Shown here: positions 7,984-52,005 of the stretch, piece after piece
How the letters are laid out: each line of letters begins with the position of its first letter
Numbering within the stretch: position 1 is the first letter of the stretch
Assembly (NCBI GenBank): GCA_041660305.1
Contig: JBAZWO010000001.1
Coordinates: 418,268-482,267 of the forward strand
Length of the DNA stretch: 64,000 nt
Direction: 5' to 3'
From: Patescibacteria group bacterium
GTDB taxonomy: Bacteria; Patescibacteriota; Patescibacteriia; UBA9570
The notes under the pieces: model-generated
Databases searched by the model: none
The model's input: only the letters and a program-made list of their open reading frames with translations
Told to the model about the DNA's origin: nothing
Program-made: the position numbers and the translations under genes

Positions 7984-8658
7984 ATGCGCATTCTCATTAT
8001 TGAAGACAATGAGAAACTAGCTTTTTCTCTAAAAAAAGGTTTAGAGCAAGATGGTAATACGATAAATTATGTGTTAGACGGTGAAGCTGGCGAACAATGT
8101 TTATTAACACAATATCAAAATTACGACGTAGTTATTTTAGATATTATGTTACCCAAACGTAACGGCCTAGATATTTGCAAAACTATCCGTAAACAAGGCA
8201 TTACCGTGCCTATATTAATATTAACTGCTAAAGATGATGTGGCTGATAAAATTACCGGCCTAGATTATGGCGCCGATGACTATTTAGTAAAACCCTTTGC
8301 TTTTGCAGAATTAGTCGCTCGTTTAAAGGCTTTGCACCGGCGTCCAATAGCTAGTACACCTGTTATATTATCTGCTGGGATATTAACCGTGAATACTACC
8401 ACTCACCAAGTACATTGCGCTAAACAAGAATTAACGTTAACCTTAAAAGAGTATCGCTTATTAGTTTATTTGCTACAACACTTAAATGAAGTAATTGCCC
8501 GCGAACAACTCTGGCAAACCTTGTGGAAAAATTCTACAGATACCATCAGTAATGTACTGGAAGCGCAAATTAAAAATTTACGAAAAAAAATAGCTCCCTA
8601 TGGATTGGAAAAAAATCTGGAAACAATACGTGGCTTGGGCTATCGCTTTAAAGCATAA
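7984..8658 (+). CDS. OmpR-family response regulator
   Basis: Receiver domain (MRILIIEDN...DVVILDIMLP...LTAKD) plus a winged-helix C-terminus (IETIRGLGYRFK). Confidence 0.9.
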   Translation: MRILIIEDNEKLAFSLKKGLEQDGNTINYVLDGEAGEQCLLTQYQNYDVVILDIMLPKRNGLDICKTIRKQGITVPILILTAKDDVADKITGLDYGADDYLVKPFAFAELVARLKALHRRPIASTPVILSAGILTVNTTTHQVHCAKQELTLTLKEYRLLVYLLQHLNEVIAREQLWQTLWKNSTDTISNVLEAQIKNLRKKIAPYGLEKNLETIRGLGYRFKA

Positions 8659-9628
8659 TATTTTTTGGCACGCCCGCATTAAACTTACTGTCTGGTATAG
8701 CCTAATTATTTTTGTTATTATTTCTATTTTTAGTAGCATGTTTTATTATAGTTTAGCCATTGAAATTCGTGATAACATTTTATTATCAGATATTGAAAAT
8801 CCAATTTTAATTAATGTGCTAATTAATCAAACGTTATTAAATATCCGGCGCATTATTATTATTGTTGATGGCGGCTTATTAATTGTTACCGCTGGTTTAG
8901 GTTATTTTTTAGCCGGAAAAACTCTGCAACCAATTCAAGCTATGTTACAAGCTCAACAACGTTTTATTGCCGATGCTTCACATGAATTACGCACTCCTTT
9001 AACAATTATTAAAACCACTACTGAAGTAGCTCTGCGCCAAACCAATCCAGCCGATTTTCAGCAAGCCTTAATTAGCAACCTGGAAGAAGTGAACAGCATG
9101 TCTAAAATCGTAGAAGATTTATTATGGCTAGCAAAACACCAGCAAACTAAGCCAACTTATGTTACTAAAAACGTTTCCCTGATTGCCTTGGCAAATAACG
9201 TCGGCCGCGCGATGCGGCCATTGGCTTTGAAAAAAAACATTAAATTAATCATAACCACTGCTGGCGCTGGTAATATATTAGGCAACGCCGATGATTTAGA
9301 ACATTTAATATTAAATTTATTAGATAACGCTATTAAATATACTCCCCGCCAAGGAATCGTTACTATAACTGTGCGGCCAAACAATGCCACAGTAACACTA
9401 ATCGTACAAGATTCTGGCCAAGGCATTGCCGCAAAAGATTTGCCTCATATTTTTGAACGATTTTACAAAGCCGATTCAGCTAGAACTTATACCAAACAAA
9501 GCGGCACCGGCTTGGGCTTGGCTATAGTGCAAACTATTGTAAAACAACATTATGGAACGATTACCGCTGAAAGTGCTGTGGGAGTCGGCACTCTATTTAC
9601 CGTGCATTTTCCCGCACATACCTCATAA
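8600..9628 (+). CDS. sensor histidine kinase (HisKA + HATPase_c)
   Basis: Two TM segments, H-box FIADASHELRTPLT, N-box LLDNAIKYTP and G-boxes DSGQGI / GTGLGLAIV. The true start is uncertain because the listed ATG overlaps the regulator gene by 59 nt. Confidence 0.85.
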   Translation: MDWKKIWKQYVAWAIALKHNIFWHARIKLTVWYSLIIFVIISIFSSMFYYSLAIEIRDNILLSDIENPILINVLINQTLLNIRRIIIIVDGGLLIVTAGLGYFLAGKTLQPIQAMLQAQQRFIADASHELRTPLTIIKTTTEVALRQTNPADFQQALISNLEEVNSMSKIVEDLLWLAKHQQTKPTYVTKNVSLIALANNVGRAMRPLALKKNIKLIITTAGAGNILGNADDLEHLILNLLDNAIKYTPRQGIVTITVRPNNATVTLIVQDSGQGIAAKDLPHIFERFYKADSARTYTKQSGTGLGLAIVQTIVKQHYGTITAESAVGVGTLFTVHFPAHTS

Positions 9629-11170
9629 GTCATTACCAGAATAAGACAAATTGAAGCTTTTATTGATTAATGGAAAATCAGGAATAAAATTACCTTTTCC
9701 CGCACAACCTAACACTGTCCAATTAATAAACGACGGATCGCGGACATCTACACGCGTTACCTTCCCCTCGAAATCCGTGACAACAAAATATACGATAGCC
9801 CCGCGCCAACCTTCTGTTACACCAATACCACAACTGTTTTTTCTGAGCTGGATTTCTTTATTAGATACCATTACATTATTAACCGTTAAACTCTGTAACG
9901 CTTGTTCTAAAATTTTTAATGAAGTTTGCACTTCATGAACACGCACCTGAAACCGACTCTGCACATCACCTTCCAGTTCTAATATCGTATCAAATTTCAG
10001 TTCCGAATAAGCCGCATAAGGATAATCAATACGCGCATCGTGCTTAATACCTATCGCTCGTCCGGCTATGCCAATAACACCATAATCTAACGCGATTTGA
10101 CGATCAAGTTTACCAGTTCCCTCTAGTCGATTAAACAATGTGCTACTCGTTTGCGCAATTTTCATCACCTCTGCAAAATCTTTGCCTATTTTTTTTAAAT
10201 CCTGCAACAAAACATGACACGCTTCAATAGAAATGTCTTTGGTAACACCACCAATACAATTAACTCCACGCAAAAATCTGCTGCCAGTAAGACGTTCATT
10301 GCACTGCATGATCATTTCACGCAGACGCGCGCCATTACTTCCGCCAAAACTATATCCAGTATCCAACATAATAAACCCGATATCATTAAAGTGATTAGCC
10401 AATCGTTCCAATTCAGAATAAATCACCCGTAAATAGTTGGTTTTTTTCGAAATGTTAATATCGGCCAAACTTTCAATGGCTTGGCAAAAAGCTAAAGCAT
10501 GCGTGAATGATGTATCTCCAGACACTCGTTCGGCTAACCGTACTTTATCAACCAGTGACAACGTTTCAAATAATTTCTCAATACCTTTGTGTTTATAGCC
10601 TAACTTTGGTTCTAATAAAATAATTTCTTCACCGGCTACGCTAAATCTAAAATGCCCCGGTTCTATAATGCCGGCATGTACCGGACCAACTGGAATTTCA
10701 TAAATCCCCTCACCATCAACTTTTTGGAATTCATAATTACCAACACTAAATGGCGGCCTTTGTTTCCAACTAACATCTTTTCGTAAGGGAAAAATATGTA
10801 CGGGCCAATTTTCGTGTAACAATATAGCTTTTGGATTAGGATGTCCAATCGGATTTAAACCAAAAAAGGTTTTAATTTTTCGTTCATAGCCAGATGCTTC
10901 TGGAATATCTTTAGTAAGAGATGGAAAATCTTCTGTATTATTTAGAATAATATAGGGCACAAGAAATACATTTTCTTTAGGAACACCGAAAATATACAAA
11001 ATCCTAAAGCCTACCCCATTTTTTCTTTCATCAGTGGCTGTGATGATTTTAAGTTGCAGTCGCTGCTTATAATACAGTTCTTTACAAATATTAACAATTT
11101 CGGAAATCGGAACCGGATAAGAAACAATATTATCATCTTGTTGAGTTTTAAAACGAGGATCGATATTCAT
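9623..11170 (-). CDS. HycE/HyfG-like large subunit (fused NuoC+NuoD-like) lacking the NiFe-binding cysteines
   Basis: 515 aa. Core PVGPVHAGIIEPGHFRF...LGYKHKGIEK matches group-4 hydrogenase/NuoD. The L1 position reads RVSGDTSFTH and the C-terminus reads NLSYSGNDL, where hydrogenases have RxCGxCxxxH and DPCxxCxxR. Confidence 0.85.
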   Translation of the reverse strand: MNIDPRFKTQQDDNIVSYPVPISEIVNICKELYYKQRLQLKIITATDERKNGVGFRILYIFGVPKENVFLVPYIILNNTEDFPSLTKDIPEASGYERKIKTFFGLNPIGHPNPKAILLHENWPVHIFPLRKDVSWKQRPPFSVGNYEFQKVDGEGIYEIPVGPVHAGIIEPGHFRFSVAGEEIILLEPKLGYKHKGIEKLFETLSLVDKVRLAERVSGDTSFTHALAFCQAIESLADINISKKTNYLRVIYSELERLANHFNDIGFIMLDTGYSFGGSNGARLREMIMQCNERLTGSRFLRGVNCIGGVTKDISIEACHVLLQDLKKIGKDFAEVMKIAQTSSTLFNRLEGTGKLDRQIALDYGVIGIAGRAIGIKHDARIDYPYAAYSELKFDTILELEGDVQSRFQVRVHEVQTSLKILEQALQSLTVNNVMVSNKEIQLRKNSCGIGVTEGWRGAIVYFVVTDFEGKVTRVDVRDPSFINWTVLGCAGKGNFIPDFPLINKSFNLSYSGNDL

Positions 11171-11171
11171 A

Positions 11172-12617
11172 TTAATACACAGAAGTAGCTGAATTGATTA
11201 ATAATGTTAACGGCGCTGGAATAAACAAACTAACTGTTACTAATATGATGATTAACATAATAATAGGCAACACTGTCCACTTACCTGCTTCGCCATGAGT
11301 TACTTGTTTTTCATTGTCTCCAAACATCATAGCAACCATGTGTTTAAAGAATCCAACAAACACAAGCACTAAACCAAATAATGCCAGCACTGTTACTGCC
11401 GGATGCTGTTGTATACCAGCCGATAAAATGGTAAATTCCGTCAAAAAAATACCAAACGGTGGTACCCCAGTAATCGCAAGGAACCCAATGATAAACGCGA
11501 CTCCAGTAATAGGCAGCACTGAAAGAGCCCCTTTAACATTAGCTATTTTTGTTGAGCTATATTTTAAGAATATATTGCCAGATGATAAAAATAGCAATGA
11601 TTTAGCCAAAGAATGATAAACCATATGCAAGAGAGCCGCAAACACACCATTGCCACCAAAACCAAAGCCTAATGCCATAATTCCCATATGCTCAATGCTT
11701 GAATAGGCCAGCAACCGTTTGTAATTTTTCTGACTTAGAATAATAAACGCCGGCACTAGGATTGATATTATGCCGAAAAAAATGAGCAGCTGTTGGGCAA
11801 ATAATGGACCAACCACCAAATCGACTACTACCTTAAAGCGTAAAATAGCAAAAAATGCTATGTTCAACAAAATACCAGAAAGCAGACTACTAATTGGCAC
11901 TGGTGCCTTGCTATGTGCATCTGGTAGCCAAGTATGCATGGGCACTAGCCCCATTTTCGTACCATAACCAACGAGGATAAAAATGAACGCCATTTTAACC
12001 ACAAACGGATCAAACCCGGTAATATTTGCCCAGATTGATTGCCAGGTTATTAAGCCGCCCTGTCCAGCTTGTAGTGCTGGATACAAAAACAATAACGTAC
12101 CAAAAAAACCAAGTAACAACCCTACTGAATTGATAATTAAATATTTCCAAGCCGCCTCAATAGCCGTTGGTTTATTGTAGAAGCTAATCAAAAAAGCTGT
12201 TGAAAGAGTAGTGGCCTCAACCGCAATCCACATTAAAATTGGATTAGTGGTACAAACGGCAAACAACATGGCCAAAATAAATAAATGTAAGAGCACAAAA
12301 TATTGTTTTATCTTATGAAAATCAATAATGCCCTTCGACATTTCCACAGCTAGATAGCCGCTAGAATACCAGGAAGCGGCCAAACCCACCACCGTTACAA
12401 TCATCATAATCAAGGCTCCCAAAGCATCAACGGAAAAATAAGGAATAAATTGATATGTTCCATCTTTAACAACTAGAGTTGTTATAACCAATGCGATTAT
12501 TAATTCCACTACAGCAGCACGGCTTACTACATAACTTAATTTAGCCATTTGTTTTTTAACAAAAAATGACAGTATTGAAGCGGTGAATGGCAAAACAATG
12601 AGAAGTAGTATTAACAT
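11172..12617 (-). CDS. antiporter-like subunit (HyfD/HyfF/NuoN/M family)
   Basis: 481 aa, polytopic, with VEATTLSTAF and GYGTKMGLVPMHTWLPDAHSKAPVPISSLLSG, the proton-conducting membrane transporter family motifs. Confidence 0.8.
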   Translation of the reverse strand: MLILLLIVLPFTASILSFFVKKQMAKLSYVVSRAAVVELIIALVITTLVVKDGTYQFIPYFSVDALGALIMMIVTVVGLAASWYSSGYLAVEMSKGIIDFHKIKQYFVLLHLFILAMLFAVCTTNPILMWIAVEATTLSTAFLISFYNKPTAIEAAWKYLIINSVGLLLGFFGTLLFLYPALQAGQGGLITWQSIWANITGFDPFVVKMAFIFILVGYGTKMGLVPMHTWLPDAHSKAPVPISSLLSGILLNIAFFAILRFKVVVDLVVGPLFAQQLLIFFGIISILVPAFIILSQKNYKRLLAYSSIEHMGIMALGFGFGGNGVFAALLHMVYHSLAKSLLFLSSGNIFLKYSSTKIANVKGALSVLPITGVAFIIGFLAITGVPPFGIFLTEFTILSAGIQQHPAVTVLALFGLVLVFVGFFKHMVAMMFGDNEKQVTHGEAGKWTVLPIIMLIIILVTVSLFIPAPLTLLINSATSVY

Positions 12618-12621
12618 AATT

Positions 12622-13281
12622 TTATTCTTCTTTTAAATTTTTCATGGCCGTTACATCTAATGAACCAACTTGCCGAAAAACCAACGTTGCAAATACCGTG
12701 GCAATCATTACCCATACCAAAATATCAAATAAGATGCCTACCTGTAGCCCAGGAGCTTGTTCTAATCCCGCTAAAAAAGCAAAGGAAACAATGGCATTTT
12801 CTAATGATAAGATACCAATCATTTGTGATAAAGCTCCTTTGCGATTAATCACTAAAAACACCGAAATAAGGAGCATGGCTATGGCCAAGGGCAACATATC
12901 TACATTTTGTTCAGTCAAAACCGTAAGTGGTTTAAACAGGTCGGAATAAGTGAAGGCTGTTAACATGGCTATGATAATCAATGTAACCGGCGCATTTAAA
13001 TAAGTACTAGCTGAAAATGTTATTTGATGTTCGCGAATAAGTCGATAAAAAAACTGGGGAGCAACGATTACTTTTAATACAAAAACTAACACTGCTATAA
13101 ACAAGGGCAGCCATGATGGTTGTTGTAATGCCGAGCTAAATAATAACACCGCCACAATTAACGACTGTACCAGGTAAAGCGTAATGGTAGAAGAACTTTT
13201 TCTAGACAAGTGCATAAAAATTACCAATAAAAACAGTAATATCTGAAGAAAAAATAAAATTTGTGTTGAGTTAGAAATCAT
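12622..13281 (-). CDS. HyfE-like small membrane subunit (NuoK-related)
   Basis: 219 aa with about 7 TM segments. It occupies the HyfE position between the NuoH-like and NuoN-like genes; the motif GILSLENAIVSFAF is HyfE-like. Confidence 0.65.
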   Translation of the reverse strand: MISNSTQILFFLQILLFLLVIFMHLSRKSSSTITLYLVQSLIVAVLLFSSALQQPSWLPLFIAVLVFVLKVIVAPQFFYRLIREHQITFSASTYLNAPVTLIIIAMLTAFTYSDLFKPLTVLTEQNVDMLPLAIAMLLISVFLVINRKGALSQMIGILSLENAIVSFAFLAGLEQAPGLQVGILFDILVWVMIATVFATLVFRQVGSLDVTAMKNLKEE

Positions 13282-13285
13282 GCTG

Positions 13286-14215
13286 CTAGATAATTAAACT
13301 AATAGCGATAAGACTTAATATGAACGAAATAAATAATAAATCCGGTAATCTAAAAAATCTATATTTTGCAATACTCGATTCTAAAATGGCAACGAAACTA
13401 CTAATAAATGTTACTTTCAATATTAATAATCCTAACGCAATTCCAATACTGAGCCACCCCATAGTTATTGCAATTCCCCATGGAAAAAACAGATTAGCAC
13501 CTAACGCTAGAAAGATTAAAAATTTACTGGCCGCTGCCCATTCTATTAATGCTAATCTCTTGCCCGAATACTCCAAAATCATCGCTTCATGAATCATAGT
13601 TAGTTCCAGATGAGTAGCTGGATTATCAAATGGAAAGCGCGCTGTTTCCGCTAGCAGTGCCAACACAAAGGCCAAAAAAGCCAACACAACTGGAGCAAAC
13701 GAATATAATGACAACGAAGAAATGGCCGCCGTTATTTTAAACAGATTCGTAGAATGAGCTGCTAGCGCTACGGCTAATAACGAAAATATTAACCCGCCTT
13801 CAGTTAACGCTGCTACCGTCATTTCTCGACTCGAACCAAACCCACCAAAGGCGCTACCTACATCGATACCGGCTAAGGCCAAAAAAAACGTGCTAAGAGC
13901 CATTAAGTACACAATAACCAATAAATCACTTAGAAAATTATTAGAAAATACTACTGTAACCAATGGAATACTAGCACCCACAATAATCATAACCGCAAAA
14001 ATAAGATAGGGCGCAAATTTAAATATCCAAGACGCATCGGTGCTGATAACCTCATCTTTATGTAATAATTTCCATAAATCTCGATACGGTTGTACAACAC
14101 TAGCACCTGCTCTGTTCTGAAATTTGGCTTTAATTTTTCTTACTAATCCAATAAACAACGGTGACAAAAATGGTACCAGTAGTAATTGAATTGTCCAAAA
14201 AATAATAGTGTCCAT
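13286..14215 (-). CDS. NuoH/HycD/HyfC-like membrane subunit
   Basis: 309 aa, polytopic, with RKIKAKFQNRAGASVVQPYRDLWKLL and FGGFGSSREM, typical of the NuoH/HycD family. Confidence 0.8.
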   Translation of the reverse strand: MDTIIFWTIQLLLVPFLSPLFIGLVRKIKAKFQNRAGASVVQPYRDLWKLLHKDEVISTDASWIFKFAPYLIFAVMIIVGASIPLVTVVFSNNFLSDLLVIVYLMALSTFFLALAGIDVGSAFGGFGSSREMTVAALTEGGLIFSLLAVALAAHSTNLFKITAAISSLSLYSFAPVVLAFLAFVLALLAETARFPFDNPATHLELTMIHEAMILEYSGKRLALIEWAAASKFLIFLALGANLFFPWGIAITMGWLSIGIALGLLILKVTFISSFVAILESSIAKYRFFRLPDLLFISFILSLIAISLII

Positions 14216-14221
14216 AGCTTT

Positions 14222-16267
14222 CTAGATAACTAAAAATACTAACAAGATCATTAGACTAATAAATAGATATAACACATAAATATTAACGCTGCCACTTTGA
14301 ATTTTTTTCATTTGCTCAGAAATTTTTGTAACCACTTTAATTATCGGTTGATAAAAGTAAGTACCGTAAACATCTTCAATTTCAAGCTTTACGCTCATAG
14401 GCTTTGGAACATAGCGCATCGCCACATCGTGATACTCAATACCCGTTTGTTTCGTAGGTTTTAGTATTCCACTAAAAATAGTAATAATCGACCGCGCAAA
14501 GCCAGTGGCGGTTATTTCCATACGCGAACCTAATTGCGTTCCGCAATCCCAAGTGGCCGCTTTAGTTATCGTTCTATCGCGCGTCAACCGGTGTACTATA
14601 AAAAATATCATTACCATTGCTAATACCAAACTGATAAAAATAGTTGGTACTGAAACAGCGGCAAAACCATCTTGTAAACTAACTGAACTTAAATTAGACA
14701 GCACCACGCCATTTACATGATAAAAAGGATTTAAATTGGCAATAACCGACAAGAGAATAGCCGTTACAGCACCTGAGAATAATCCTATTAGGAGAGTGAG
14801 AACGGCTAAGATAGCCATGCCAATTCTCAATGATAAAGACACCTCTTTCGTTTGACGCACTGCTTCACTTCTCGGCCGAGCTAAAAAAGTAGTCCCAAAT
14901 GCCTTAACAAAGCAAGCGGCAGCCAATCCACCGGTAAAAGCTAATGCTCCGGCAGCCAATAAAAATATCCATTGCACGGAAACATCTAACGATCTTATAC
15001 CACTAAATAACGTTTGAAACGTGATCCACTCACTAAAAAACCCATTAAACGGGGGTAGTGCGGAAATAGCGATAGAGCCGATTAAAAAGAAAAAAGCAGT
15101 CTGTGGCATGTATTTAATGATTCCGCCATAAGCCTCGATATTTCTGGTTTTCATTTTTAAAATTACTGAACCAGCTCCTAAAAATAATAATGCTTTAAAG
15201 ATAGCGTGATTCAAAGTATGAAACAATGCCGCTACCAAACCAAGCATGGCTAAAGATTTCATATCCAGCGCTAGAAACACCAATGAACTTCCTAATCCTA
15301 ATAAAATAATCCCAATATTCTCAATACTATGATAAGCTAGTAGTTTTTTAATGTCGTGTTCAGTGAGAGCGTATAATACACCCAATAGTGCCGATATTGA
15401 TCCTATAATTATTATAATAATACCCCACCACAATGGTACATTAGGCATGAGATCAATAAAAATCCGAATAAACATGTATACCCCTGTTTTGATCATGACT
15501 CCAGACATTAATGCGGACACATGCGAAGGAGAAGCAGGATGAGCTTTTGGCAACCAAATATGAACTGGAATAATACCAGCTTTCGTACCAAAACCAAGCA
15601 ATGAGAGTATGAAAATAATATTTTTTATAAGCGGAGAAACATTGCCAAGTTGCCCTTTAATAACCAAAAAATCAAATGACCCTGTAGCTTGATAGAGTAA
15701 TAAAAAAGCGCACATGATAAACGCGGTGCCAATGTGCGTCATAATAAAATAAAGTGACCCGGCTTTAATATTATCTTTTTCCTTATGTTCAAAAATAACC
15801 AAAAAATACGAAGCCAGTGACATGATTTCCCATACGATCAAGAAAAAAAAGGTGTTCGAAGCACTCACTACTAATATCATCCCCGCTATGAACAGATTGT
15901 AGAAAAAACCTAAGGCGCCCAGACTGTATTGTTTGTAATAATGTTTTACATAGCCTAGCGCATAAATCGAGGCACACAATGAAATTAGTGTGATAATAAA
16001 AATAAAAAAAGCTGCTAACTTATCTATATTAAATGATAAAGTTAGTAACGACAACGATGAACCGCTGCTATAAGAGAAGGTTGCGCCAAAAAGCAATACA
16101 GTTACTGAAGCTATTAGCCCTGTAATGGCACCTACCATAGAAAAAGTATTCCCCCATAAATTAGCCGCATGATCATTCTTTCTTAACCATAACGAACCAA
16201 GCGCTCCAATTATTAAGGCTATTAGAGACGAAAAAAAGAAAAATTGAGCTAAGCTAGAACTAAACAT
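14222..16267 (-). CDS. NuoL/HycC/HyfB-like antiporter-like subunit
   Basis: 681 aa with WEIMSLASYFLV and GFGTKAGIIPVHIWLPKAHPASPSHVSALMSGVMIKTG, the HyfB/NuoL family motifs. Confidence 0.85.
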   Translation of the reverse strand: MFSSSLAQFFFFSSLIALIIGALGSLWLRKNDHAANLWGNTFSMVGAITGLIASVTVLLFGATFSYSSGSSLSLLTLSFNIDKLAAFFIFIITLISLCASIYALGYVKHYYKQYSLGALGFFYNLFIAGMILVVSASNTFFFLIVWEIMSLASYFLVIFEHKEKDNIKAGSLYFIMTHIGTAFIMCAFLLLYQATGSFDFLVIKGQLGNVSPLIKNIIFILSLLGFGTKAGIIPVHIWLPKAHPASPSHVSALMSGVMIKTGVYMFIRIFIDLMPNVPLWWGIIIIIIGSISALLGVLYALTEHDIKKLLAYHSIENIGIILLGLGSSLVFLALDMKSLAMLGLVAALFHTLNHAIFKALLFLGAGSVILKMKTRNIEAYGGIIKYMPQTAFFFLIGSIAISALPPFNGFFSEWITFQTLFSGIRSLDVSVQWIFLLAAGALAFTGGLAAACFVKAFGTTFLARPRSEAVRQTKEVSLSLRIGMAILAVLTLLIGLFSGAVTAILLSVIANLNPFYHVNGVVLSNLSSVSLQDGFAAVSVPTIFISLVLAMVMIFFIVHRLTRDRTITKAATWDCGTQLGSRMEITATGFARSIITIFSGILKPTKQTGIEYHDVAMRYVPKPMSVKLEIEDVYGTYFYQPIIKVVTKISEQMKKIQSGSVNIYVLYLFISLMILLVFLVI

Positions 16268-16269
16268 AG

Positions 16270-16794
16270 TTATTTTACTTCAAACACATCAAACATTTTT
16301 AATAAGTAGCACAGAATCGTTTTGGGCGATGGCGGATCGCCGGGAATTTGAAAATCAACAGGTATAACACTAGCTACCCCATCTAATACCGCATAAGATC
16401 CTCTAAAAATACCTCCATTAATGGCATCATCGCCTACGGCTACCACTAGTTTAGGAGTTGGCGTAGCCTCATAAGTTTTAATTAACGCTTCGCGCATGTT
16501 TCTAGAAACGGCTCCAGTAACCATCAACATATCTGCGTGTCGGGGCGACGCTACAAAATGAATGCCAAAGCGTTCAATATCATAATAGGCATTACTTAAT
16601 GCCGTTAGTTCCTGTTCACAAGCATTGGTTGAACCGGTATCTACTTCTCGAATAGCTAACGACCCTTTAAATAATTTTTTCACTTTTTTTTCTAACTGTT
16701 GACCGATTACAGTAATATCATCACTGCGATTTAATGACTTTACATCGATAACTGTTTTAGGTGTTGAAAATATTTTATAGTAAAATTTGAACAT
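16270..16794 (-). CDS. NuoB/HycG-like small subunit with a degenerate Fe-S site
   Basis: 174 aa. YDIERFGIHFVASPRHADMLMVTGAV is the NuoB/HycG core. The ligand positions read GSTNACEQE, GDDAINGG and PGDPPSP, against the usual GSCNGCE, GxCAxxGG and PGCPP. Confidence 0.8.
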   Translation of the reverse strand: MFKFYYKIFSTPKTVIDVKSLNRSDDITVIGQQLEKKVKKLFKGSLAIREVDTGSTNACEQELTALSNAYYDIERFGIHFVASPRHADMLMVTGAVSRNMREALIKTYEATPTPKLVVAVGDDAINGGIFRGSYAVLDGVASVIPVDFQIPGDPPSPKTILCYLLKMFDVFEVK

Positions 16795-16829
16795 TTGTTG
16801 AAAATTTCGATTTAAGACTATTCTATTGT

Positions 16830-16858
16830 TGTATAACTATAGTAATAAATTTTGTCAA
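16830..16858 (-). promoter_or_regulatory. putative promoter of the hyf-like operon
   Basis: On the minus strand: TTGACA (16858-16853), 17 nt, TATACA (16835-16830), about 35 nt upstream of the 16794 start. Confidence 0.35.
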
Positions 16859-16895
16859 TTCAAAACTACATACTAACACTTTCACTCTTACGATT

Positions 16896-17852
16896 CTATT
16901 TAGCCGATTTAAGATGTGCTAATGCCCCAATAATAATAGCTACTACTCCAGCTAACGTCACCGCTATACCATAGTGCATAGTACGCCGTAACATATCTTG
17001 ATAAGCCAACCGTAATATATTTCCAAATACCGTATTTACCCAAGCCGCATCGTTAGGAATAGTAGCGGTTAATATAAAATTACTAATTATTGCAAAACTG
17101 GCGGCTATGGCCCACTGACTTAATGCAATAAATCCACCAACCACCATTAAAACGCACCCTACTACAATACTACTCCGTTTATAACTAGGAATAACAATGA
17201 TCGTTAAACTAATTAATGTTAGTAATACAGCTAAAATAATTCCTGGTATCAATAATCCTAGCGTAAAAATTTCTTGAGCCATAGCTGTAGTGTTGGTATC
17301 AATCGGTAACTGATCGCCAGTTATTTTAGTTTTCTCTAATATATTATTTAATTCAGAATTATCTACTGTATTTACGCCAACTTGATTTAAAATATTATTA
17401 GTATCAATAGTGGCTACTAATTGAGTTAATAAAGCTGGATCGGATATTAAAGTAATATTAAAAATCGGTTTAGCAGTTTTACCTTCTAACCAATCGTAAG
17501 TAGCGTTAATAAGAGTAATTATGGATGTACGCAAAAATTCTGGGTAGATAATTTTATCCACTACCATACGTGTTTGGCTGTTTTTATCTTGCGCTTGTTG
17601 CGTAATTACATAAACCGCTGAATCAGCAGGTGCTTTTTTAATAATAATAGTACTAATGGTATCAATTGGATTGTTATAAATCCCAGCTTGTTCAAACCAA
17701 ATCTTAATATGTTCTCGATTGGTAAGTGTACGCAACACTGCCGCCGTTGGCACGCCTACCACAATTACAAAGCCTAACTGCAATAACAACAAAACTCCTA
17801 ATACCCAACGTAAAACATTAAAACAACCGCCTGATTTTTTCTTTACCTCCAT
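16896..17852 (-). CDS. hypothetical membrane protein
   Basis: 318 aa with an N-terminal TM segment, a large extracytoplasmic region and several C-terminal TM helices. No family is recognised. Confidence 0.5.
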   Translation of the reverse strand: MEVKKKSGGCFNVLRWVLGVLLLLQLGFVIVVGVPTAAVLRTLTNREHIKIWFEQAGIYNNPIDTISTIIIKKAPADSAVYVITQQAQDKNSQTRMVVDKIIYPEFLRTSIITLINATYDWLEGKTAKPIFNITLISDPALLTQLVATIDTNNILNQVGVNTVDNSELNNILEKTKITGDQLPIDTNTTAMAQEIFTLGLLIPGIILAVLLTLISLTIIVIPSYKRSSIVVGCVLMVVGGFIALSQWAIAASFAIISNFILTATIPNDAAWVNTVFGNILRLAYQDMLRRTMHYGIAVTLAGVVAIIIGALAHLKSAK

Positions 17853-17878
17853 ATTATTAATGCTATTATAGCAATAAT

Positions 17879-19084
17879 TTATTTAAGTTTATATACCACG
17901 TCATTTTTACGAAAACGTTGCGCTGATACAAATGTAATTTCATCACGATTTTTAGCCGTGTTAACTGCTTGATTATTCAACCAAAATTCTGGCAAAATTA
18001 ATTCCACTAGCCCAGTAGTACTGCCTTGAATATGTAGTTTGTTTCCCGTTTGCACGGGATTAGCTATTTGTATTTGTACTATTTGTTTCTTTGGATAATA
18101 ATGCGTTACCATACCGACATATTCGCGCTGTTGTTTAGCCTGATTACCACTGCTATTACTCCAGGCTTCTGCACCTGGTTTAGCTACAAAAAAACCAGTA
18201 GAAAAATGACGATTATAAACCTGTTCTACTTGCTTCATTAACTGTTGTTGCAAAACAGCAGAATACTTATTTTTTTTAATGGCGTCTAACGCCTGTCGAT
18301 ACGCCGCCACTACTTCATAAATATAATCCGTTGAGCGACCACGCCCTTCAATTTTTAACACATCTACTCCGGTAGCCACTAATTCTTGTAAAATTGGTAA
18401 TGTGCATAAATCTTTCGGACTCAACACATACCCACAACCCACTATTAATTCTTTTTTAGTTTGTTGATCGATAATTAAATACTCACGCCGACACGGCTGT
18501 TGACACTCTCCTCGATTAGCGGATTTACCATATAAACTTTGCGATAAAAAACATCGGCCGGAAATAGATACACACATGGCGCCGTGCACAAATACTTCAA
18601 TTTTCATTTTGGTTTTCTGTTTGATAGCTTTGATTTGTTTTAAATTGCATTCGCGTGCTAACACCACACATTGCGCGCCTAATTTTTTATAAAACAACAC
18701 TGCCTGGCTATTAGCAATGCTGGCTTGCGTAGAAATATGAATCGGCAAACCAATTTTTTTAGCTAGTTTAATTACCGCGCTATCCCAACAAATCACGGCG
18801 TCTACGCCGGATATTTTTAATTTTTTGAGCAGATTTTCTAACAAGCTCAATTCTTGTTCATACACAATTACGTTTACGGTAATATACACTTTCACCTGAT
18901 GTTCGTGCGCTAACGTAACAGCTTTTTTCAGCCTAACTAAAGATATGCCCTTAGAACTGGCGCGCATATTTAAAAACCCTACTCCAAAATACACCGCGTC
19001 TGCTCCCGCCTGAATCGCCGCTCGCAACGAGGTTTCATCACGTACCGGAGCTAAAAGCAATGGTAAATGATTGTATCGAACCAT
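17879..19084 (-). CDS. peptidase U32 family protein
   Basis: 401 aa. The start LLAPVRDETSLRAAIQAGADAVYFG and the CxxxxxGRxxNRGxCxQxCR-like segment (SANRGECQQPCRREY) are typical of U32. Confidence 0.85.
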   Translation of the reverse strand: MVRYNHLPLLLAPVRDETSLRAAIQAGADAVYFGVGFLNMRASSKGISLVRLKKAVTLAHEHQVKVYITVNVIVYEQELSLLENLLKKLKISGVDAVICWDSAVIKLAKKIGLPIHISTQASIANSQAVLFYKKLGAQCVVLARECNLKQIKAIKQKTKMKIEVFVHGAMCVSISGRCFLSQSLYGKSANRGECQQPCRREYLIIDQQTKKELIVGCGYVLSPKDLCTLPILQELVATGVDVLKIEGRGRSTDYIYEVVAAYRQALDAIKKNKYSAVLQQQLMKQVEQVYNRHFSTGFFVAKPGAEAWSNSSGNQAKQQREYVGMVTHYYPKKQIVQIQIANPVQTGNKLHIQGSTTGLVELILPEFWLNNQAVNTAKNRDEITFVSAQRFRKNDVVYKLK

Positions 19085-19094
19085 AGTTAGTTGA

Positions 19095-19451
19095 TTAATC
19101 CACTAATATAAAACATCTATCTAACGCTGGCGTAGTAGCTAAGTTCACATTGGTTAAATCTTTTGGACAACAAGCATACTGCGTTTCCAGTTTTCCGCCT
19201 AAATTTTTCCACTCACAATTAGCCTGTTCTGTACAAGCATAATCGTTTTTTTCGTCCGCTGTAACCATTTTACCACTGCCTGATCGACTAGGCACAACAT
19301 CACATTCGTCGTTACTGACAAAGGTTTGATTAAGGTTTTGATTAATATTCTGATTAACAGCTGGATTAGACGTTGTTTTGGTACAACCGGTAAAACCAGT
19401 AAACACAACTATACTAACTACCCCTAAAATTAGGCCTAACAATTTTTTCAT
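19095..19451 (-). CDS. hypothetical Cys-rich lipoprotein
   Basis: 118 aa with signal peptide and lipobox FTGC, and six further Cys in the mature part. Confidence 0.5.
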   Translation of the reverse strand: MKKLLGLILGVVSIVVFTGFTGCTKTTSNPAVNQNINQNLNQTFVSNDECDVVPSRSGSGKMVTADEKNDYACTEQANCEWKNLGGKLETQYACCPKDLTNVNLATTPALDRCFILVD

Positions 19452-19532
19452 AAATTTTTATGCTTTATTTAATTATTACTCAATAGATCATAGCATTACT
19501 TATTAGTTTTGAACAATCTAAATCCCTATAAA

Positions 19533-19561
19533 TTGACGCTTTAGTTAAATTGATTTATACT
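19533..19561 (+). promoter_or_regulatory. putative promoter of rpsA-ftsH
   Basis: TTGACG (19533-19538), 17 nt, TATACT (19556-19561). Confidence 0.4.
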
Positions 19562-19658
19562 TCCAGAACTAACTTATTTAATTTTGCTATTGTTAGTAAT
19601 TAGCTAATACTAGCGCTGTTACCTGGTCAGGTGCAGTTAAACATTAATAAAATAATAT

Positions 19659-20825
19659 ATGACCAATACCAATAGTTTGATGTCCACTTTATTGGACAAG
19701 CAAGGTGAATTACCAATTCCTAAAGTGAACGATACCATTGAAGGTACTGTAGTTGGTTTAGGCAAAAACGAGGTGCTAGTTGATGTAAACGGCTTCATGA
19801 CTGGCGTGGTACGTGGCCCAGAATTATTTGATGAATCTGGCGATTTTTCCAGTTTAAAATTAGGTGATAGCGTGTCTGCTACCGTTTTGGAAGTAGAAAA
19901 TGAAAATGGCCAAGTAGAATTATCCTTCCGTCAAGCTGGTCATCGTAAAGCTTGGAAATTTTTACAACAATTAAAAATGTCTAACGAATTAGTTGAAGCT
20001 CAAATAGTAGATGCTAATAAAGGTGGCTTAATTGTCCGCGTTGGCCGAGTATCTGGTTTTTTACCAGTGTCACAATTATCTGTAGAACACTATCCTCGTG
20101 TAGAAGGCGGCAACAAGGCAAAAATATTGGAACGCTTATCACAGTATGCTAATGAAATCTTTAAAGTAAAAGTAATTGATGTTAATGAAACTGATGAAAA
20201 ATTAATCGTATCGGAAAAAGTAGCTAAGGCCGATCAACAACAAGAAAAAATTGCTCAATATAAAGTAGGTGCGGTGGTAGAAGGCAAAGTAACCGGCGTA
20301 GTTGATTTTGGTGCCTTTGTGGAATTTGGTGAAAATTTAGAAGGTTTGGTACATATTTCAGAAATTGCCTGGCAACGGATTGATAATCCAAAAGACTATA
20401 TTAAAGTTGGTGATCCAGTTAAAGCTGAAATTATTAGTATTGATAATTCCAAAATTTCTCTAAGTATTCGCAATTTAATTCGTGATCCTTGGTTACATGT
20501 ACATGAAAAATTCAAAATTGGCACAGTGGTAGAAGGAAAAGTATTAAAAATCAATCCCTTTGGCGCTTTTGTGGAATTAGATAATGAAATTCACGGTTTA
20601 GTACATATCTCTGAATTATCCTACAAAAAATTATCCAGCCCAGCGGAAGTTATTCAACCTGGTAACAACTATTCTTTCAAAGTAATTTCTATTGAGCCAC
20701 AAAAACATCGTTTAGGCTTATCTTATAAAGCCTTGCACGAACAACTAGTTAAACCAAAGGCTGAAGTTACTGCTACTGCTACCACTGCCTCTTCCCCTGC
20801 CACAACCGACAGTGCTAAACTATAA
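19659..20825 (+). CDS. rpsA: 30S ribosomal protein S1 (four S1 domains)
   Basis: 388 aa with repeated S1 OB-fold motifs (G..V.G.V....GA/G.FV.....GL.HISE). Confidence 0.85.
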   Translation: MTNTNSLMSTLLDKQGELPIPKVNDTIEGTVVGLGKNEVLVDVNGFMTGVVRGPELFDESGDFSSLKLGDSVSATVLEVENENGQVELSFRQAGHRKAWKFLQQLKMSNELVEAQIVDANKGGLIVRVGRVSGFLPVSQLSVEHYPRVEGGNKAKILERLSQYANEIFKVKVIDVNETDEKLIVSEKVAKADQQQEKIAQYKVGAVVEGKVTGVVDFGAFVEFGENLEGLVHISEIAWQRIDNPKDYIKVGDPVKAEIISIDNSKISLSIRNLIRDPWLHVHEKFKIGTVVEGKVLKINPFGAFVELDNEIHGLVHISELSYKKLSSPAEVIQPGNNYSFKVISIEPQKHRLGLSYKALHEQLVKPKAEVTATATTASSPATTDSAKL

Positions 20826-29412: not shown

Positions 29413-30117
29413 TTATTTCTCATTTTCCAAAGCCAATTTAAGCAAGAATATAGTATCTGATTTTAATTTAGCTTTAGCCCAGTCTTTTTGAGATTCAATA
29501 AGCAACTCTCCTAGACCATCAAGTATATGACGATTATCCAGCTTGTCTAATAATTCAAGACAGCTAACTAATAATTTTTTTAATGGCATACCAGATCTAG
29601 CGTTGATTAATTCTTTATTTATCGGCCAATTATTTTTAGAAAAAAAATATACATCATAGATATCACGACTAGTTCTACCGATTCTTTCATACATAGCCAT
29701 TAATTTATTGGCAAACATATCATCTTCTGTCATTACCAACATTGAAATGCCAAGCACTGTTTTTATTTTATAGCTTGCACCAAAATTTCGACGATTAATT
29801 TCCAACTTAACATTTTGCGCGCCAACCACTTTATTATCATAAGACAAAATATATAACAGATTAAATCTTTTCTTAAAAACTTCTTTTAACTGCCCATATT
29901 TTTTTAGAATTGTTTTAATCCGTTCAAATACATAATCTTCTTGTTCCGGATTGAGCAAATCAAAATCCAAATCTACCGAGTTACGATCCAGACCGTAAAA
30001 CAACAAAGCCGCCGTACCACCCTTAAATCCAAGGTGGGGAGCTAATGTCGTGTCAGAAAAAATATCTTTTAAAATCTGTAACAATATATTTTTATGTTTA
30101 GGATAATCTAGCGCCAT
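29413..30117 (-). CDS. AbiEii/AbiGii-family nucleotidyltransferase toxin (type IV TA)
   Basis: 234 aa. The N-terminus LLQILKDIFSDTTLAPHLGFKGGTAALLFYGLDRNSVDLDFD is the DUF1814/AbiEii signature. Confidence 0.8.
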   Translation of the reverse strand: MALDYPKHKNILLQILKDIFSDTTLAPHLGFKGGTAALLFYGLDRNSVDLDFDLLNPEQEDYVFERIKTILKKYGQLKEVFKKRFNLLYILSYDNKVVGAQNVKLEINRRNFGASYKIKTVLGISMLVMTEDDMFANKLMAMYERIGRTSRDIYDVYFFSKNNWPINKELINARSGMPLKKLLVSCLELLDKLDNRHILDGLGELLIESQKDWAKAKLKSDTIFLLKLALENEK

Positions 30118-30131
30118 ATAATTTTCTTATT

Positions 30132-30728
30132 TTATTTATTGTCCTGATAATACTTATAATATTCATTAACTTTTTTTTCCATTCTTTTATTGCGATAAAT
30201 TGGTAAAATCTCAAAAACCTTATTCCATTCTAAACTATCTAAATTATCAAAATGATACTCTTTGCTAACATATATTCTATCTAAAAATGCTCGCTCTCTA
30301 CTCGCTATAGCCACATCATTTATATGTTCAATACCAATAGTATCGCTTAAAACATAATCTTTCATTCTAATAAAGGATATTCTATGCCCATCAGCCACAA
30401 TATCACGCGTAACATAAGAAGCCACAAAAATATTTCCATAGTACTGAAAATTCACTCCTGTTCTAGTTAATACAGTTTCAAAACTAATATATGAAGGTAA
30501 ATAGATGTGGGTGGCTAATTCAAAACTATTATAGTTTTTGTCTTTTGCGTAAATACCGTGGTAAACTCTAATTAATTTCACATTTTTAACGTAACTACTC
30601 AATCTTACTTTGACATTAGCTGTCATTGTTTCTCCCCATAACATAGCAATGTCTTTTGTGGAAAAGATTGTTTTACTCGATCTTAGTAATGTATCAATAT
30701 ATTGGCCTTTAGTGAGTTTATTATCCAT
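30132..30728 (-). CDS. AbiEi-family antitoxin / transcriptional regulator
   Basis: Typical AbiEi N-terminus (FSTKDIAMLW...VRLSSYVKNVKLIRVYHGIYA). I prefer the internal ATG (MDNKLTKGQY) at 30728 over the listed 30797 start. Confidence 0.7.
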   Translation of the reverse strand: MDNKLTKGQYIDTLLRSSKTIFSTKDIAMLWGETMTANVKVRLSSYVKNVKLIRVYHGIYAKDKNYNSFELATHIYLPSYISFETVLTRTGVNFQYYGNIFVASYVTRDIVADGHRISFIRMKDYVLSDTIGIEHINDVAIASRERAFLDRIYVSKEYHFDNLDSLEWNKVFEILPIYRNKRMEKKVNEYYKYYQDNK

Positions 30729-30803
30729 ATGTTTACTGATAGTAAGCTTAAAACTTACTATCAGTATAATTATATACCATTTATTAAAATAGTGCAAGAT
30801 GAG

Positions 30804-47364: not shown

Positions 47365-47619
47365 ATGAATAACGCTACTACTAAACTATCTGAAAAATAT
47401 CAAATTGTTGTGCCGAAAATAATTCGCCAGCAAATGCATTTAACTACTGGCATGACTGTATTACTACAACCACTCGATGCCAACCGAGCTATTTTGGTAA
47501 AACATCCAAAAGATTATGTAACTGCTTTAAGTGGTTTGGGTCAAGATATCTGGAAAAAATTAGGCGGGGTTAATTACATTAAACGAGCTCGCAAACAATG
47601 GGACAAATCATCGGTCTAG
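47365..47619 (+). CDS. AbrB/MazE/SpoVT-family antitoxin (VapB-like)
   Basis: 84 aa. The swapped-hairpin motif is KYQIVVPKIIRQQMHLTTGMTVLL. It overlaps the PIN gene by 22 nt. Confidence 0.7.
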   Translation: MNNATTKLSEKYQIVVPKIIRQQMHLTTGMTVLLQPLDANRAILVKHPKDYVTALSGLGQDIWKKLGGVNYIKRARKQWDKSSV

Positions 47620-48005
47620 ACACTGGCATTTTTGTTTATTTACTTGAAAAACATCGTATGTATTTTCCAATTGTTGAAGAATATTTTATCCAAATTCAAG
47701 CTGGCAAATTATCTGGTGTGTTTGCTAGTATTGGCATGATTGAATTATTAACTGGGCCAAAACAACTTGGCAAATTTGATATTGCTAATCAATACCGTGA
47801 TTTATTAACTTCCTTTCCTAATCTGTCTATTATTGATTTAAACGAAACGGTAATTGATGTATCGTCCGATTTACGCGCTCAATATCACATTACTACACCC
47901 GATGCCATTCATTTAGCTAGCGCCATATACTCTGGAGCAAATAAATTTATTACTAACGACAAAGCTCTAAAAAAAGTAAAAGAAATTAATGTAGTATTAT
48001 TATAA
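47598..48005 (+). CDS. PIN-domain toxin (VapC-like)
   Basis: 135 aa with an N-terminal IGLDTGIFVY (Asp), a mid E (IELLT), a TPDAIHLASA Asp and a C-terminal ITND. Confidence 0.8.
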   Translation: MGQIIGLDTGIFVYLLEKHRMYFPIVEEYFIQIQAGKLSGVFASIGMIELLTGPKQLGKFDIANQYRDLLTSFPNLSIIDLNETVIDVSSDLRAQYHITTPDAIHLASAIYSGANKFITNDKALKKVKEINVVLL

Positions 48006-49863: not shown

Positions 49864-49985
49864 TTTGTAGTCATATATACGAAATTATATATAAAACTCA
49901 TGTATCGATGGGATGTTGATACGTGAGGTCAATTCTTAATAATCCAAAATAACAATTGATCGTTATCGCAAGATAATCGATCTTT

Positions 49986-51489
<1,504 letters not shown>

Positions 51490-51552
51490 TAAGGAGTACG
51501 GTGTGTTAACAGGCAGACCTCATTGCCTGTGTAACACGTTGGTCGCTGCATT

Positions 51553-51578
51553 TTTCTTGTCACAGTTTGGTTGTTAAA
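51553..51578 (+). other. 3' half of the 16S processing stem
   Basis: TTTCTTGTCACAGTTTGGTTGTTAAA pairs with 49838-49863. Confidence 0.65.
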
Positions 51579-51580
51579 AA

Positions 51581-51609
51581 ATACCGCGCTATTTATGCGC
51601 GGTATTTTG
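51581..51609 (+). terminator. terminator-like hairpin directly after the 16S
   Basis: ATACCGCGC TATTTAT GCGCGGTAT followed by TTTGTT. Confidence 0.45.
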
Positions 51610-51613
51610 TTGC

Positions 51614-51642
51614 TAGACAACCTAGTAAAAATAAGCTATAGT
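51614..51642 (+). promoter_or_regulatory. putative promoter of tRNA-Ile(GAT)/tRNA-Phe
   Basis: TAGACA (51614-51619), 17 nt, TATAGT (51637-51642). Confidence 0.45.
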
Positions 51643-51738
51643 ATTTTTTGCTTTACCTCACCCCTACCCCCTCTCCTCAAAGGAGAGGGGAAAAAATATT
51701 ACACCTAATTTATTAAGGTAAAGCAATTAGCAAAATAT

Positions 51739-51812
51739 GGGCGTGTAGCTCAGGTGGTTAGAGCGCAGTCCTGATAAGACTGAGGTCCCTGGTTCGAGTC
51801 CAGGCATGCCCA
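51739..51812 (+). tRNA. tRNA-Ile (anticodon GAT)
   Basis: Acceptor GGGCGTG/CATGCCC, anticodon stem CAGTC/GACTG with loop CTGATAA, T-loop GGTTCGAGTCC. Confidence 0.9.
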
Positions 51813-51907
51813 CCTTCGCTCGCTTCGCTCACTTCGGTGGGCAGGCCCACTACTCTTTCATGGAGTAGCCGGCTTGCCGGCCGAAGTTCTGCGCTAGCAG
51901 AACGTAG
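51813..51907. repeat. 95-nt GC-rich quasi-palindromic tRNA spacer (two facing twin-hairpin elements)
   Basis: CC TTCG.. CTTCGG TGGGC AGG CCCAC | CTACTC..GAGTAG | GCCGGC TT GCCGGC CGAAG TTCTGC GCTA GCAGAA CGTAG. Confidence 0.7.
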
Positions 51908-51979
<72 letters not shown>

Positions 51980-52005
51980 CAAACAGACCACATTAGTATT
52001 TATGT

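Follow-up and report, generated by a model that had tools for sequence, protein, structure and literature searches.

An Ehr-family operon of a Patescibacteria bacterium that has lost the NiFe site and the last iron-sulfur cluster of the peripheral arm

A stretch of 64,000 nucleotides from a Patescibacteria group bacterium (assembly GCA_041660305.1, contig JBAZWO010000001.1 of 491,640 bp, positions 418,268 to 482,267; hereafter the window) contains six abutting open reading frames (ORFs) on the minus strand, which run from 16794 to 9623 with gaps of 1-6 nt between them. With high confidence, they constitute an ehrS-A-B-C-D-L operon of the Ehr (energy-converting-hydrogenase-related) family, belong to a subclade that is common in the candidate phyla radiation (CPR)/Patescibacteria, and have lost both the NiFe site and the last iron-sulfur cluster of the peripheral arm. 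A six-gene Hyf-type architecture resembling group 4 hydrogenases had been recognized at these coordinates in an earlier note on this DNA, and it was confirmed by the ORF listing and by matches to the Pfam and NCBIfam models with which the six proteins were assigned to families.

Coppi 2005 and Marreiros 2013 are reportedly the sources for the Ehr family, the latter being said to be its defining survey. Ehr complexes have a hydrogenase-like large subunit without NiFe motifs and are of unknown function (PMC6349859, PMC10284858, PMC4378227); ehrABCDLS genes are annotated in Methanospirillum hungatei (Mhun_1817-1822; PMC4704411) and Geobacter sulfurreducens (GSU0739-45; PMC7894505). Jaffe et al. 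2020 (PMC7304191) described a monophyletic CPR Ehr clade without NiFe cysteines, discussing the large subunit alone. Membership of the Ehr family and the loss of the NiFe site in the CPR Ehr clade are thus already published, which limits the present claim, and the function proposed below is read from sequence. What seems to be unreported is the loss of the last Fe-S cluster, its convergent replacement by carboxylates, the unchanged coupling apparatus, the recurrent synteny of atp and ehr genes, and the archaeal counterpart in cultured methanogens. No earlier description of cluster-less Ehr small subunits or of atp-ehr synteny was found in the searchable literature, the coverage of which is incomplete, so that this absence is not proof of novelty.

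Cofactor sites and ion path

The small subunit EhrS (16270..16794, minus strand; 174 aa) is NuoB/HycG-like (PF01058, E=7.5e-25), and its closest solved relatives are HycG (7z0s_G, E=5e-29) and MbhJ (6cfw_J). In the alignment, CNGC, GACG and PGCPP of HycG pair with TNAC, GDDA and PGDPP of EhrS, which bears out the earlier claim that three of the four [4Fe-4S] cysteines are replaced: Cys1, Cys3 and Cys4 of the cluster site correspond to T56, D123 and D153, and C59 is the sole remaining cysteine. Among the 120 closest sequences, taken as cluster representatives, the four ligand positions read TCDD in 97, DCDD in 12, SCDD in 9, and TEDD and TADD in 1 each. The pattern [T/D/S]-C-D-D is therefore found in 118/120, with C59 in 118/120 and D123 and D153 each in 120/120. 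Deeper cluster-less relatives have TEGD, SEGD, DCGD or DCDN, and an archaeal cluster-less lineage has DADN, DTDN, DPDN or DAEN at these positions. Compared with 150 cluster-less sequences, the small subunits outside these lineages read CCCC in 131 cases, which are classic Ehr and a few true hydrogenases, and PCCC in one.

All 150 cluster-less small subunits, which are phylogenetically non-independent, have two or three Asp/Glu residues among the four former cysteine positions. The carboxylate pairs differ by lineage (D123+D153, E59+D153, D56+D153 and D56+D123), which amounts to at least four distinct pairings. We infer that the place of the former anionic [4Fe-4S](Cys)4 centre may require a negative charge, or a group that can be protonated or bind a cation. 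A replacement metal site with fixed ligands was considered and rejected: T/D/S-C-D-D is fixed in the closest clade, but deeper relatives have S/T-E-G-D or D-x-D-N. Since no fixed ligand set survives, a specific conserved replacement metal centre is unlikely, and the sole rule that appears to hold across the cluster-less lineages is that of at least two carboxylates. The AlphaFold2 model of EhrS was set aside because of its mean predicted local distance difference test (pLDDT) score of 51.8.

A separate observation was made in a Chloroflexota metagenome-assembled genome (L086), where a 276-aa small subunit (11507-12337) that reads E-C-E-D at the positions of the proximal cluster accompanies a large subunit in which the four NiFe cysteines are all present (ERICGACALSH / CYAC). 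This appears to be a true hydrogenase without the canonical proximal cluster.

The second lost site lies in EhrL (9623..11170, minus strand; PF00329 and PF00346), a fused NuoC+NuoD/HycE-like large subunit of 515 aa without NiFe cysteines. E. coli HycE is its closest match of known structure (7z0s_E, E=1e-71 with phmmer). The phmmer alignment pairs RVCGICGFAH of HycE with RVSGDTSFTH of EhrL and DPCYSCTD with NLSYSGND, so that all four NiFe cysteines are substituted (S217, T220, S509 and G512), as had been noted before. EhrL contains the Ehr-type motifs ERVSGDTSFTH (214-224) and NKSFNLSYSGNDL (503-515): in the sequences sampled, true hydrogenases have ERICGxC...H and NKSFELCYxCxDR, while all Ehr have ER[VI]SGD[TS]..H and NKSFNLSYSGNDL. 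The position of T. thermophilus Nqo4 Tyr87, the quinone-binding tyrosine of NuoD, is occupied by Gly218 in the phmmer alignment. The AlphaFold2 model of EhrL (pLDDT 83.9, predicted TM-score 0.88) had HycE 7z0s_E as its top Foldseek match with a TM-score of 0.87, followed by E. coli NuoCD.

About 8000 homologues of EhrL were found at E<1e-10. The top 120 share 62-71% identity and come from many CPR phyla, Lentisphaerae, Thermodesulfobacteriota and Deltaproteobacteria. In an alignment of 44 close relatives, the mean column identity is 73%, and E214, S217, G218, D219, F222 and H224 as well as PDFPLINKSFNLSYSGNDL are invariant. Because of this identity and the invariance of the remodelled motifs, the latter are evidently under purifying selection on a new site and not in decay. 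The beta1-beta2 loop PVGP[VI]HAGIIEPGHFRF is identical in cluster-less Ehr, classic Ehr and true hydrogenases; EhrL keeps it as PVGPVHAGIIEPGHFRF, the hydrogenase proton-transfer loop being HAGIIEPGH. H165, E170 and H173 of EhrL, along with many other residues, are conserved in at least 93% of all sequences compared.

The membrane arm is encoded by four genes on the same minus strand. EhrA (14222..16267, 681 aa) is a HyfB/NuoL-like antiporter-type subunit that matches PF00361 and NF005086 ('hydrogenase 4 subunit B') with 687 bits, over the cutoff of 667. EhrB (13286..14215, 309 aa) is HycD/HyfC/NuoH-like (PF00146, E=8e-45). EhrC (12622..13281, 219 aa) is a HyfE-like membrane subunit that reaches 57.6 bits with the HyfE model NF008556, under its 136-bit cutoff, and has a NuoK-like C-terminal part with a weak PF00420 match at residues 130-217. 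The HyfF/NuoM/N-like antiporter-type subunit EhrD (11172..12617, 481 aa) matches PF00361 and the HyfF model NF005044, the latter with 452 bits, under the cutoff.

For each subunit, 17-21 sequences of the cluster-less clade were compared with 70-110 of classic Ehr and 6-7 of hydrogenases. At a level of at least 93%, E147, K229, H236, K260, H350, H354, K358 and E413 are conserved in EhrA (102 homologues), E134, K221, H228, D233, H331, H335 and K339 in EhrD, and K70 and E161 in EhrC. EhrB has an acidic chain that is conserved in both Ehr and hydrogenases (D118, E131, E139, E190, D197, E204, E210 and E215), and its R130, R193, H202 and H209 are also conserved at this level. Aligned to MbhH (6cfw_H), EhrD has E134 as the glutamate of transmembrane helix (TM) 5, K221 as the lysine of TM7 and a glutamate at TM12, with an asparagine in place of the TM8 lysine. 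We take the conserved Glu/Lys/His residues of EhrA to EhrD to be the ion-path residues of complex I, membrane-bound hydrogenase (MBH) and Mrp. The motifs that the earlier note had quoted for an intact ion path in both antiporter-like subunits are present, and the conservation of the single residues extends over 100+ homologues. Apart from D153 of EhrS, clade-specific substitutions of cluster-less Ehr are absent from EhrL and EhrA, and only one or two conservative ones occur in EhrB, EhrC and EhrD. The cluster-less operons therefore seem to differ barely from cluster-bearing Ehr beyond the ligands, with every ion-path residue retained, and this retention indicates that ion translocation is probably still the selected function.

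Relatives and linkage to ATP synthase genes

The comparison of loci was based on 80 from reference genomes, collected with a large-subunit profile, and 80 from metagenomes, collected with a small-subunit profile. A neighbor-joining (NJ) tree, a crude method, was built from 130 large subunits and rooted on cysteine-bearing hydrogenases. In this tree, EhrL groups with Ehr, with which it shares the Ehr-specific motifs, away from true group 4 hydrogenases and NuoD. This placement agrees with Jaffe et al. 2020 (PMC7304191). The operon has the same six types of subunit as the Ehr of G. sulfurreducens, M. hungatei and the CPR clade of Jaffe et al. 2020, both CxxC NiFe motifs are likewise absent and replaced by common motifs, and a NuoEFG-like input module is missing in each. 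The view that the complex is Ehr-like but further reduced could be upheld, as the 131 cluster-bearing small subunits keep all four cysteines. That it is unexplained by annotation could not, since Ehr is a named family with the same six subunits. What sets the window operon apart is that bacterial Ehr outside the subclade have a four-cysteine EhrS, often fused to a 2x[4Fe-4S] domain, which is typical of them rather than a stated formal criterion, whereas three of the four cysteines are replaced here (all four in some relatives) and a carboxylate pair is present instead. The subclade also differs from other Ehr in its S-first gene order and its frequent adjacency to F1Fo ATP synthase genes.

The earlier note had counted the missing HycF/HyfH/NuoI-type subunit among the departures of the operon. 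None is present in it, but this is nothing special because many classic Ehr operons also lack one: cluster-bearing EhrS often has a 2x[4Fe-4S] extension or is followed by a small Fer4 ORF, but Nitrospira- and Rokubacteria-type Ehr operons have neither. Nor is the complex peculiar to small genomes, since the closest relatives of the window operon include a 3-Mb genome, a Lentisphaerae genome and others from Firestonebacteria, Thermoleophilia, Fibrobacteria, Endomicrobiales and Bdellovibrionales.

In the sampled loci, only two lineages have lost the cluster of the small subunit. The S-first clade, which holds the window operon, is monophyletic in the rough NJ tree and has two subclades. The separate S-last lineage adjoins Thaumarchaeota-type Ehr and is found in Methanospirillum stamsii, M. 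purgamenti, Methanoregula, other Methanomicrobiales, Bathyarchaeota and Woesearchaeota. Its loci (L151, 9953-10477; P0246-P0365; L099, L105, L124, L126, L136, L142 and L161) have the order A-B-C-D-L-S. All four cysteines are gone in this lineage, with D-x-[DE]-N in 117/120 top matches and D-x-D-D or D-T-D-T in the other three. The cluster loss in the S-last archaea appears to be independent of that in the S-first clade. For the methanogen ehrABCDLS, the M. hungatei genome paper (PMC4704411) assumed ferredoxin reduction, a reaction that would be beyond any small subunit without the cluster.

Two Ehr sets are interleaved in Lentisphaerae GWF2_38_69 (L003/L004, 1-12331) in the order C-E-F-L1, S(TCDD)-A-B-C-D-L2 and S'(Fer4-fused, CCCC). 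A cluster-less S-first cassette was apparently inserted there into a second, divergent Ehr operon, where it separates the large subunit from the Fer4-fused small subunit, and this insertion suggests that the S-first cassette is mobile.

Clustering of the flanking ORFs yielded just three conserved neighbour families at the cluster-less loci, namely the F1 gamma, beta and epsilon subunits. At seven loci, ehrS is immediately preceded on its own strand by atpG-atpD-atpC or by the whole atp operon (atpI-B-E-F-H-A-G-D-C), with atpC-ehrS gaps of 182 (L007), 1109 (L017), 257 (L081), 130 (L087), 78 (L141), 286 (L167) and 63 bp (L168). In Daviesbacteria (L010, 2941-19185), the atp operon is split: atpA-atpG-atpD and atpC share a strand, and the space between atpD and atpC is taken up by the ehr operon and a few further genes in the opposite orientation; at L090, the atp and ehr operons are convergent. 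Altogether, 9/22 independent cluster-less loci with usable flanks are linked to atp genes, in both subclades, compared to 0/88 other Ehr and hydrogenase loci (Fisher p ~8e-5 on the subset tested). The chance of such an adjacency in a 1-Mb genome is a few percent. A Na+-coupled ATP synthase was considered for the linked operons and rejected: the c-subunits of three of them read AAFAEA[VI]AIYALV, with no helix-1 Gln and without the Gln/Ser/Thr Na+ signature, which we take from the Ilyobacter tartaricus c-ring motif. Because of the missing signature, the linked ATPase is probably H+-coupled.

Proposed function and competing explanations

Three known systems frame the functional question. With group 4 [NiFe] hydrogenases (formate hydrogenlyase (FHL)-1, HycBCDEFG, 7Z0S; Hyf/FHL-2; P. 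furiosus MBH, 6CFW), the window operon shares the HyfB/C/E/F-type membrane set, HycE and HycG as the best matches of EhrL and EhrS, and an identical beta1-beta2 loop, HAGIIEPGH. Unlike them, it lacks the NiFe cysteines, the proximal cluster and a HycF/HyfH/MbhN subunit, and the window has no hyp or hycI genes; on these grounds the complex is predicted to be unable to make or use H2. Complex I (NDH-1) has a homologous peripheral-arm interface, antiporter-like subunits with the same Glu/Lys/His axis, and the NuoH-like acidic chain and PFD...EYSG loop. In contrast to complex I, the operon has no N2 cluster, glycine at the position of the quinone-site tyrosine and only two antiporter-like subunits, and NuoA, J, I, E, F and G are absent from the operon and the window scans. 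Mrp (Mnh/Pha/Sha) is redox-independent by composition, as the window complex is, and both have two MrpA/MrpD-type PF00361 subunits and a NuoK/MrpC-like element. EhrA and EhrD show the conserved pattern of TM5 Glu, TM7 Lys and TM12 Lys/Glu. Unlike Mrp, the operon contains a NuoH-like subunit and a NuoB/C/D-like cap and is without MrpB, MrpE, MrpF and MrpG. Mrp is the favoured functional analogy, by which the window complex would be predicted to carry out antiport.

The explanation judged best, held tentatively as quite possible without being probable, is a translocator of cations and protons that works without redox chemistry, in partnership with the F1Fo ATPase. The scaffold would be of the complex-I/Mrp type, in which ions would be moved by EhrA, EhrD, the HyfE-like EhrC and the NuoH-like EhrB via a buried Glu/Lys/His chain, and the NuoB/C/D-like cap would be kept as a cytoplasmic gate or vestibule. 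At both former cofactor sites, the soft-metal cysteine ligands have given way to hard oxygen ligands, with a Ser/Asp/Thr/Asn pocket at the former NiFe position and the carboxylate pair at the former [4Fe-4S] position. Sites of this kind would favour H+, Na+, Mg2+ or Ca2+ over Ni or Fe. Both remodelled sites would lie at the NuoB/NuoD/NuoH-like interface, which is the coupling trigger in complex I, and the trigger might be protonation or cation binding instead of redox chemistry. In a fermentative cell without an electron transport chain, H+ would be exported by ATP hydrolysis via an H+-type F1Fo, and the Ehr complex could interconvert the proton gradient and a cation gradient, probably of Na+. 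The pay-off could be pH and ion homeostasis and Na+-coupled uptake. A sodium:solute symporter family protein (PF00474) is encoded at 60787-62322 on the plus strand of the window; it hints, as weak evidence, at the use of a Na+ gradient by the cell, although none of the window's genes was seen to encode a primary Na+ pump.

Several points weigh against this proposal. Mrp antiporters work without a peripheral arm, and antiport alone therefore leaves a 7.2-kb complex with a conserved cap unexplained in a streamlined genome. The EhrL pocket is also present in cluster-bearing Ehr, often with a fused 2x[4Fe-4S] domain, so the ancestral function may be redox-linked, and cluster-less forms could depend on an unseen factor. 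The complex also has close relatives in multi-Mb genomes outside the CPR, where energy metabolism is of another kind. The atp synteny is drawn from a modest sample of phylogenetically related loci, and the ehr operon is not beside atp genes in the window itself, nor at L169 and L170. Finally, the ion specificity is purely inferred, and the NJ tree is crude.

An alternative that we consider unlikely is that a non-redox reaction or the conversion of a ligand is coupled to ion flow. Here, the EhrL pocket would bind a small substrate, and the reaction would drive ion export for the ATP synthase or, conversely, the gradient would drive the reaction. Precedents exist in CupA on cyanobacterial NDH-1 and in DabAB, both of which hydrate CO2 vectorially. 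The near-invariance of SGD[TS]S..H and NLSYSGNDL in all Ehr seems to go beyond the need of a plug, the proton-transfer loop HAGIIEPGH is kept, and the retention of a 7.2-kb operon in a reduced genome suggests a large pay-off; the atp linkage suits a gradient generator equally well as a gradient consumer. However, no catalytic domain, nucleotide- or substrate-binding motif or carbonic-anhydrase-like partner was found in the operon or its conserved neighbours, and the context points to no candidate substrate. Modules of the CupA/DabAB type are moreover established to attach to distal antiporter subunits, not to the NuoD pocket.

It is improbable that the complex is an oxidoreductase still, acting through an unrecognised cofactor or partner such as a metal at C59/D122/D123/D153 or a ferredoxin or hydrogenase docking in trans. 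The presence of C59 in 118/120 of the closest small subunits fits such a role, a single Asp ligand to a cubane has established precedents, and classic Ehr keep the proximal cluster, often together with a fused 2x[4Fe-4S] domain. Docking in trans is assumed for methanogen Ehr and for the proposed complexes of formate dehydrogenase (FDH) and Ehr, the latter having been suggested for Margulis- and Saganbacteria (PMC6349859), and the abundance of Ehr proteins in Geobacter is increased on formate (PMC7894505). Against this, at most one cysteine is left, and none in the TEGD/SEGD subclade and the archaeal D-x-D-N lineage. The position of the NuoD quinone-binding tyrosine is Gly218. To our knowledge, there is no [4Fe-4S] or [2Fe-2S] site with such ligands. 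The operon has no Fer4-type ORF, and a CxxCxxCxxxC motif was not found in any frame of the 64 kb. Pfam scans of the 46 other substantial ORFs of the window revealed no hyp, hycI, fdh, nuoEFG or ferredoxin genes, in agreement with the earlier statement that maturation, endopeptidase, fdh and nuoEFG genes are missing from the 64 kb. Neighbour clustering likewise identified no redox gene conserved beside the related loci and no ferredoxin-like conserved neighbour at cluster-less loci, where Fer4-motif ORFs are scattered (L009, L012, L017).

More improbable still is that the complex regulates, senses or serves as a scaffold and transports no ions on balance, for instance as a sensor of pH or membrane potential or as an assembly or regulatory partner of the ATP synthase. 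The adjacency to ATP synthase genes would fit, and the carboxylate pair could titrate with pH. As a lead only, a possibly Ehr-like 'group 4f' complex in Methylocystis is upregulated 16-20 fold at pH 5 (bioRxiv 10.1101/2025.08.29.672306). This 'group 4f [NiFe]-hydrogenase' has the catalytic motif '...AARVS', with H2 undetectable, and going by this motif it may be an Ehr (RVSGD) and not a hydrogenase; if so, it would be rare expression evidence tying Ehr to acid stress. Two complete antiporter-type ion paths and a fully conserved NuoH-like acidic chain are nevertheless hard to reconcile with a sensor, an output domain is missing, and the adjacent two-component system is not conserved elsewhere. 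Among the roles suggested earlier, nothing favours the sensor in particular and the ATP synthase linkage favours the ion translocator, all of them being still speculative.

A functionless, decaying hydrogenase relic, a view voiced for Geobacter Ehr in PMC13194489, would account for the loss of all recognised cofactor ligands but is essentially excluded by the conservation data. The ORFs are intact and spaced by 1-6 nt, homologues number in the thousands, and sequences from distant phyla are 62-71% identical, the remodelled motifs being invariant. In addition, an independent lineage has converged on carboxylates, and classic Ehr proteins have been detected by proteomics (PMC7894505).

Genomic surroundings and implications

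Upstream of ehrS lies an intergenic region of 101 bp (16795..16895, minus strand), the only gap of more than 6 nt, which may tentatively be presumed to be the promoter region. A sigma-70-like match (TTGAAT-16-TATAGT) is found at 16863-16836. In the promoter and terminator scan of 9400-19800, which was uninformative, the number of matches equals the expectation from shuffled sequences, so that this match is no promoter evidence. Downstream, a sensor histidine kinase gene (8600-9628, plus strand) converges with the EhrL gene with an overlap of 6 nt. The two-component system is not conserved beside any related locus, which agrees with the earlier view of it as a mere neighbour. The two-component system, a U32 peptidase and a 318-aa membrane protein beside the window operon were rejected as parts of the system because they are absent beside related loci.

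According to Pfam, the remaining ORFs of the window encode housekeeping functions, surface proteins and toxin-antitoxin systems. Of the toxin-antitoxin-like genes, those at 29413-30797 (minus strand) are one for an AbiEii nucleotidyltransferase toxin and, 14 nt upstream of it in the same orientation, an ORF of 221 aa without annotation (30132-30797); a PIN-domain protein is encoded at 47598-48005 (plus strand). Two large surface proteins are predicted, one of 1832 aa with beta-helix, Ig-like and CarboxypepD_reg domains (41341-46839, plus strand) and one of 689 aa with six CarboxypepD_reg repeats (52056-54125, minus strand); such proteins are typical of the cell surfaces of episymbiotic CPR bacteria. 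At 49983-51980, tRNA-Ile(GAT) and tRNA-Phe(GAA) come after a complete 16S rRNA gene. The 12 kb that remain contain no 23S rRNA, which makes the rRNA operon an unlinked one, a common arrangement in the CPR.

CPR bacteria keep an F1Fo ATP synthase without a known source or use of an ion gradient. Moreira et al. 2021 (PMC8080830) called an ATP synthase in CPR without a source of proton-motive force 'intriguing' and cited a proposal of ATPase-driven antiporters, and a 2026 review (PMC13293708) left the direction of the CPR ATP synthase open. A cofactor-less complex at the end of the atp operon would be a concrete candidate for the partner. The finding also corrects the annotation of these proteins, whose database entries call them 'NADH-quinone oxidoreductase subunit B/C' or 'Ni,Fe-hydrogenase III'.

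The coupling of the NuoB/NuoD/NuoH interface to the distant antiporter modules in complex I and hydrogenases is still debated. The replacement of the cluster by a carboxylate pair at least two independent times, with the coupling residues kept, would be a natural experiment on the electrostatic part of the trigger. The fullest version of the proposal, possible but rather doubtful at present, is a complex-I-type machine without redox chemistry, in which proton or cation binding at both former sites would be coupled to ion flow, and which would be the missing chemiosmotic partner of the CPR F1Fo and have arisen independently in Methanomicrobiales. If this is true, Methanospirillum would be a culturable test system, and the cluster-less Ehr complexes would offer a natural 'redox-free' model for the coupling mechanism of complex I.

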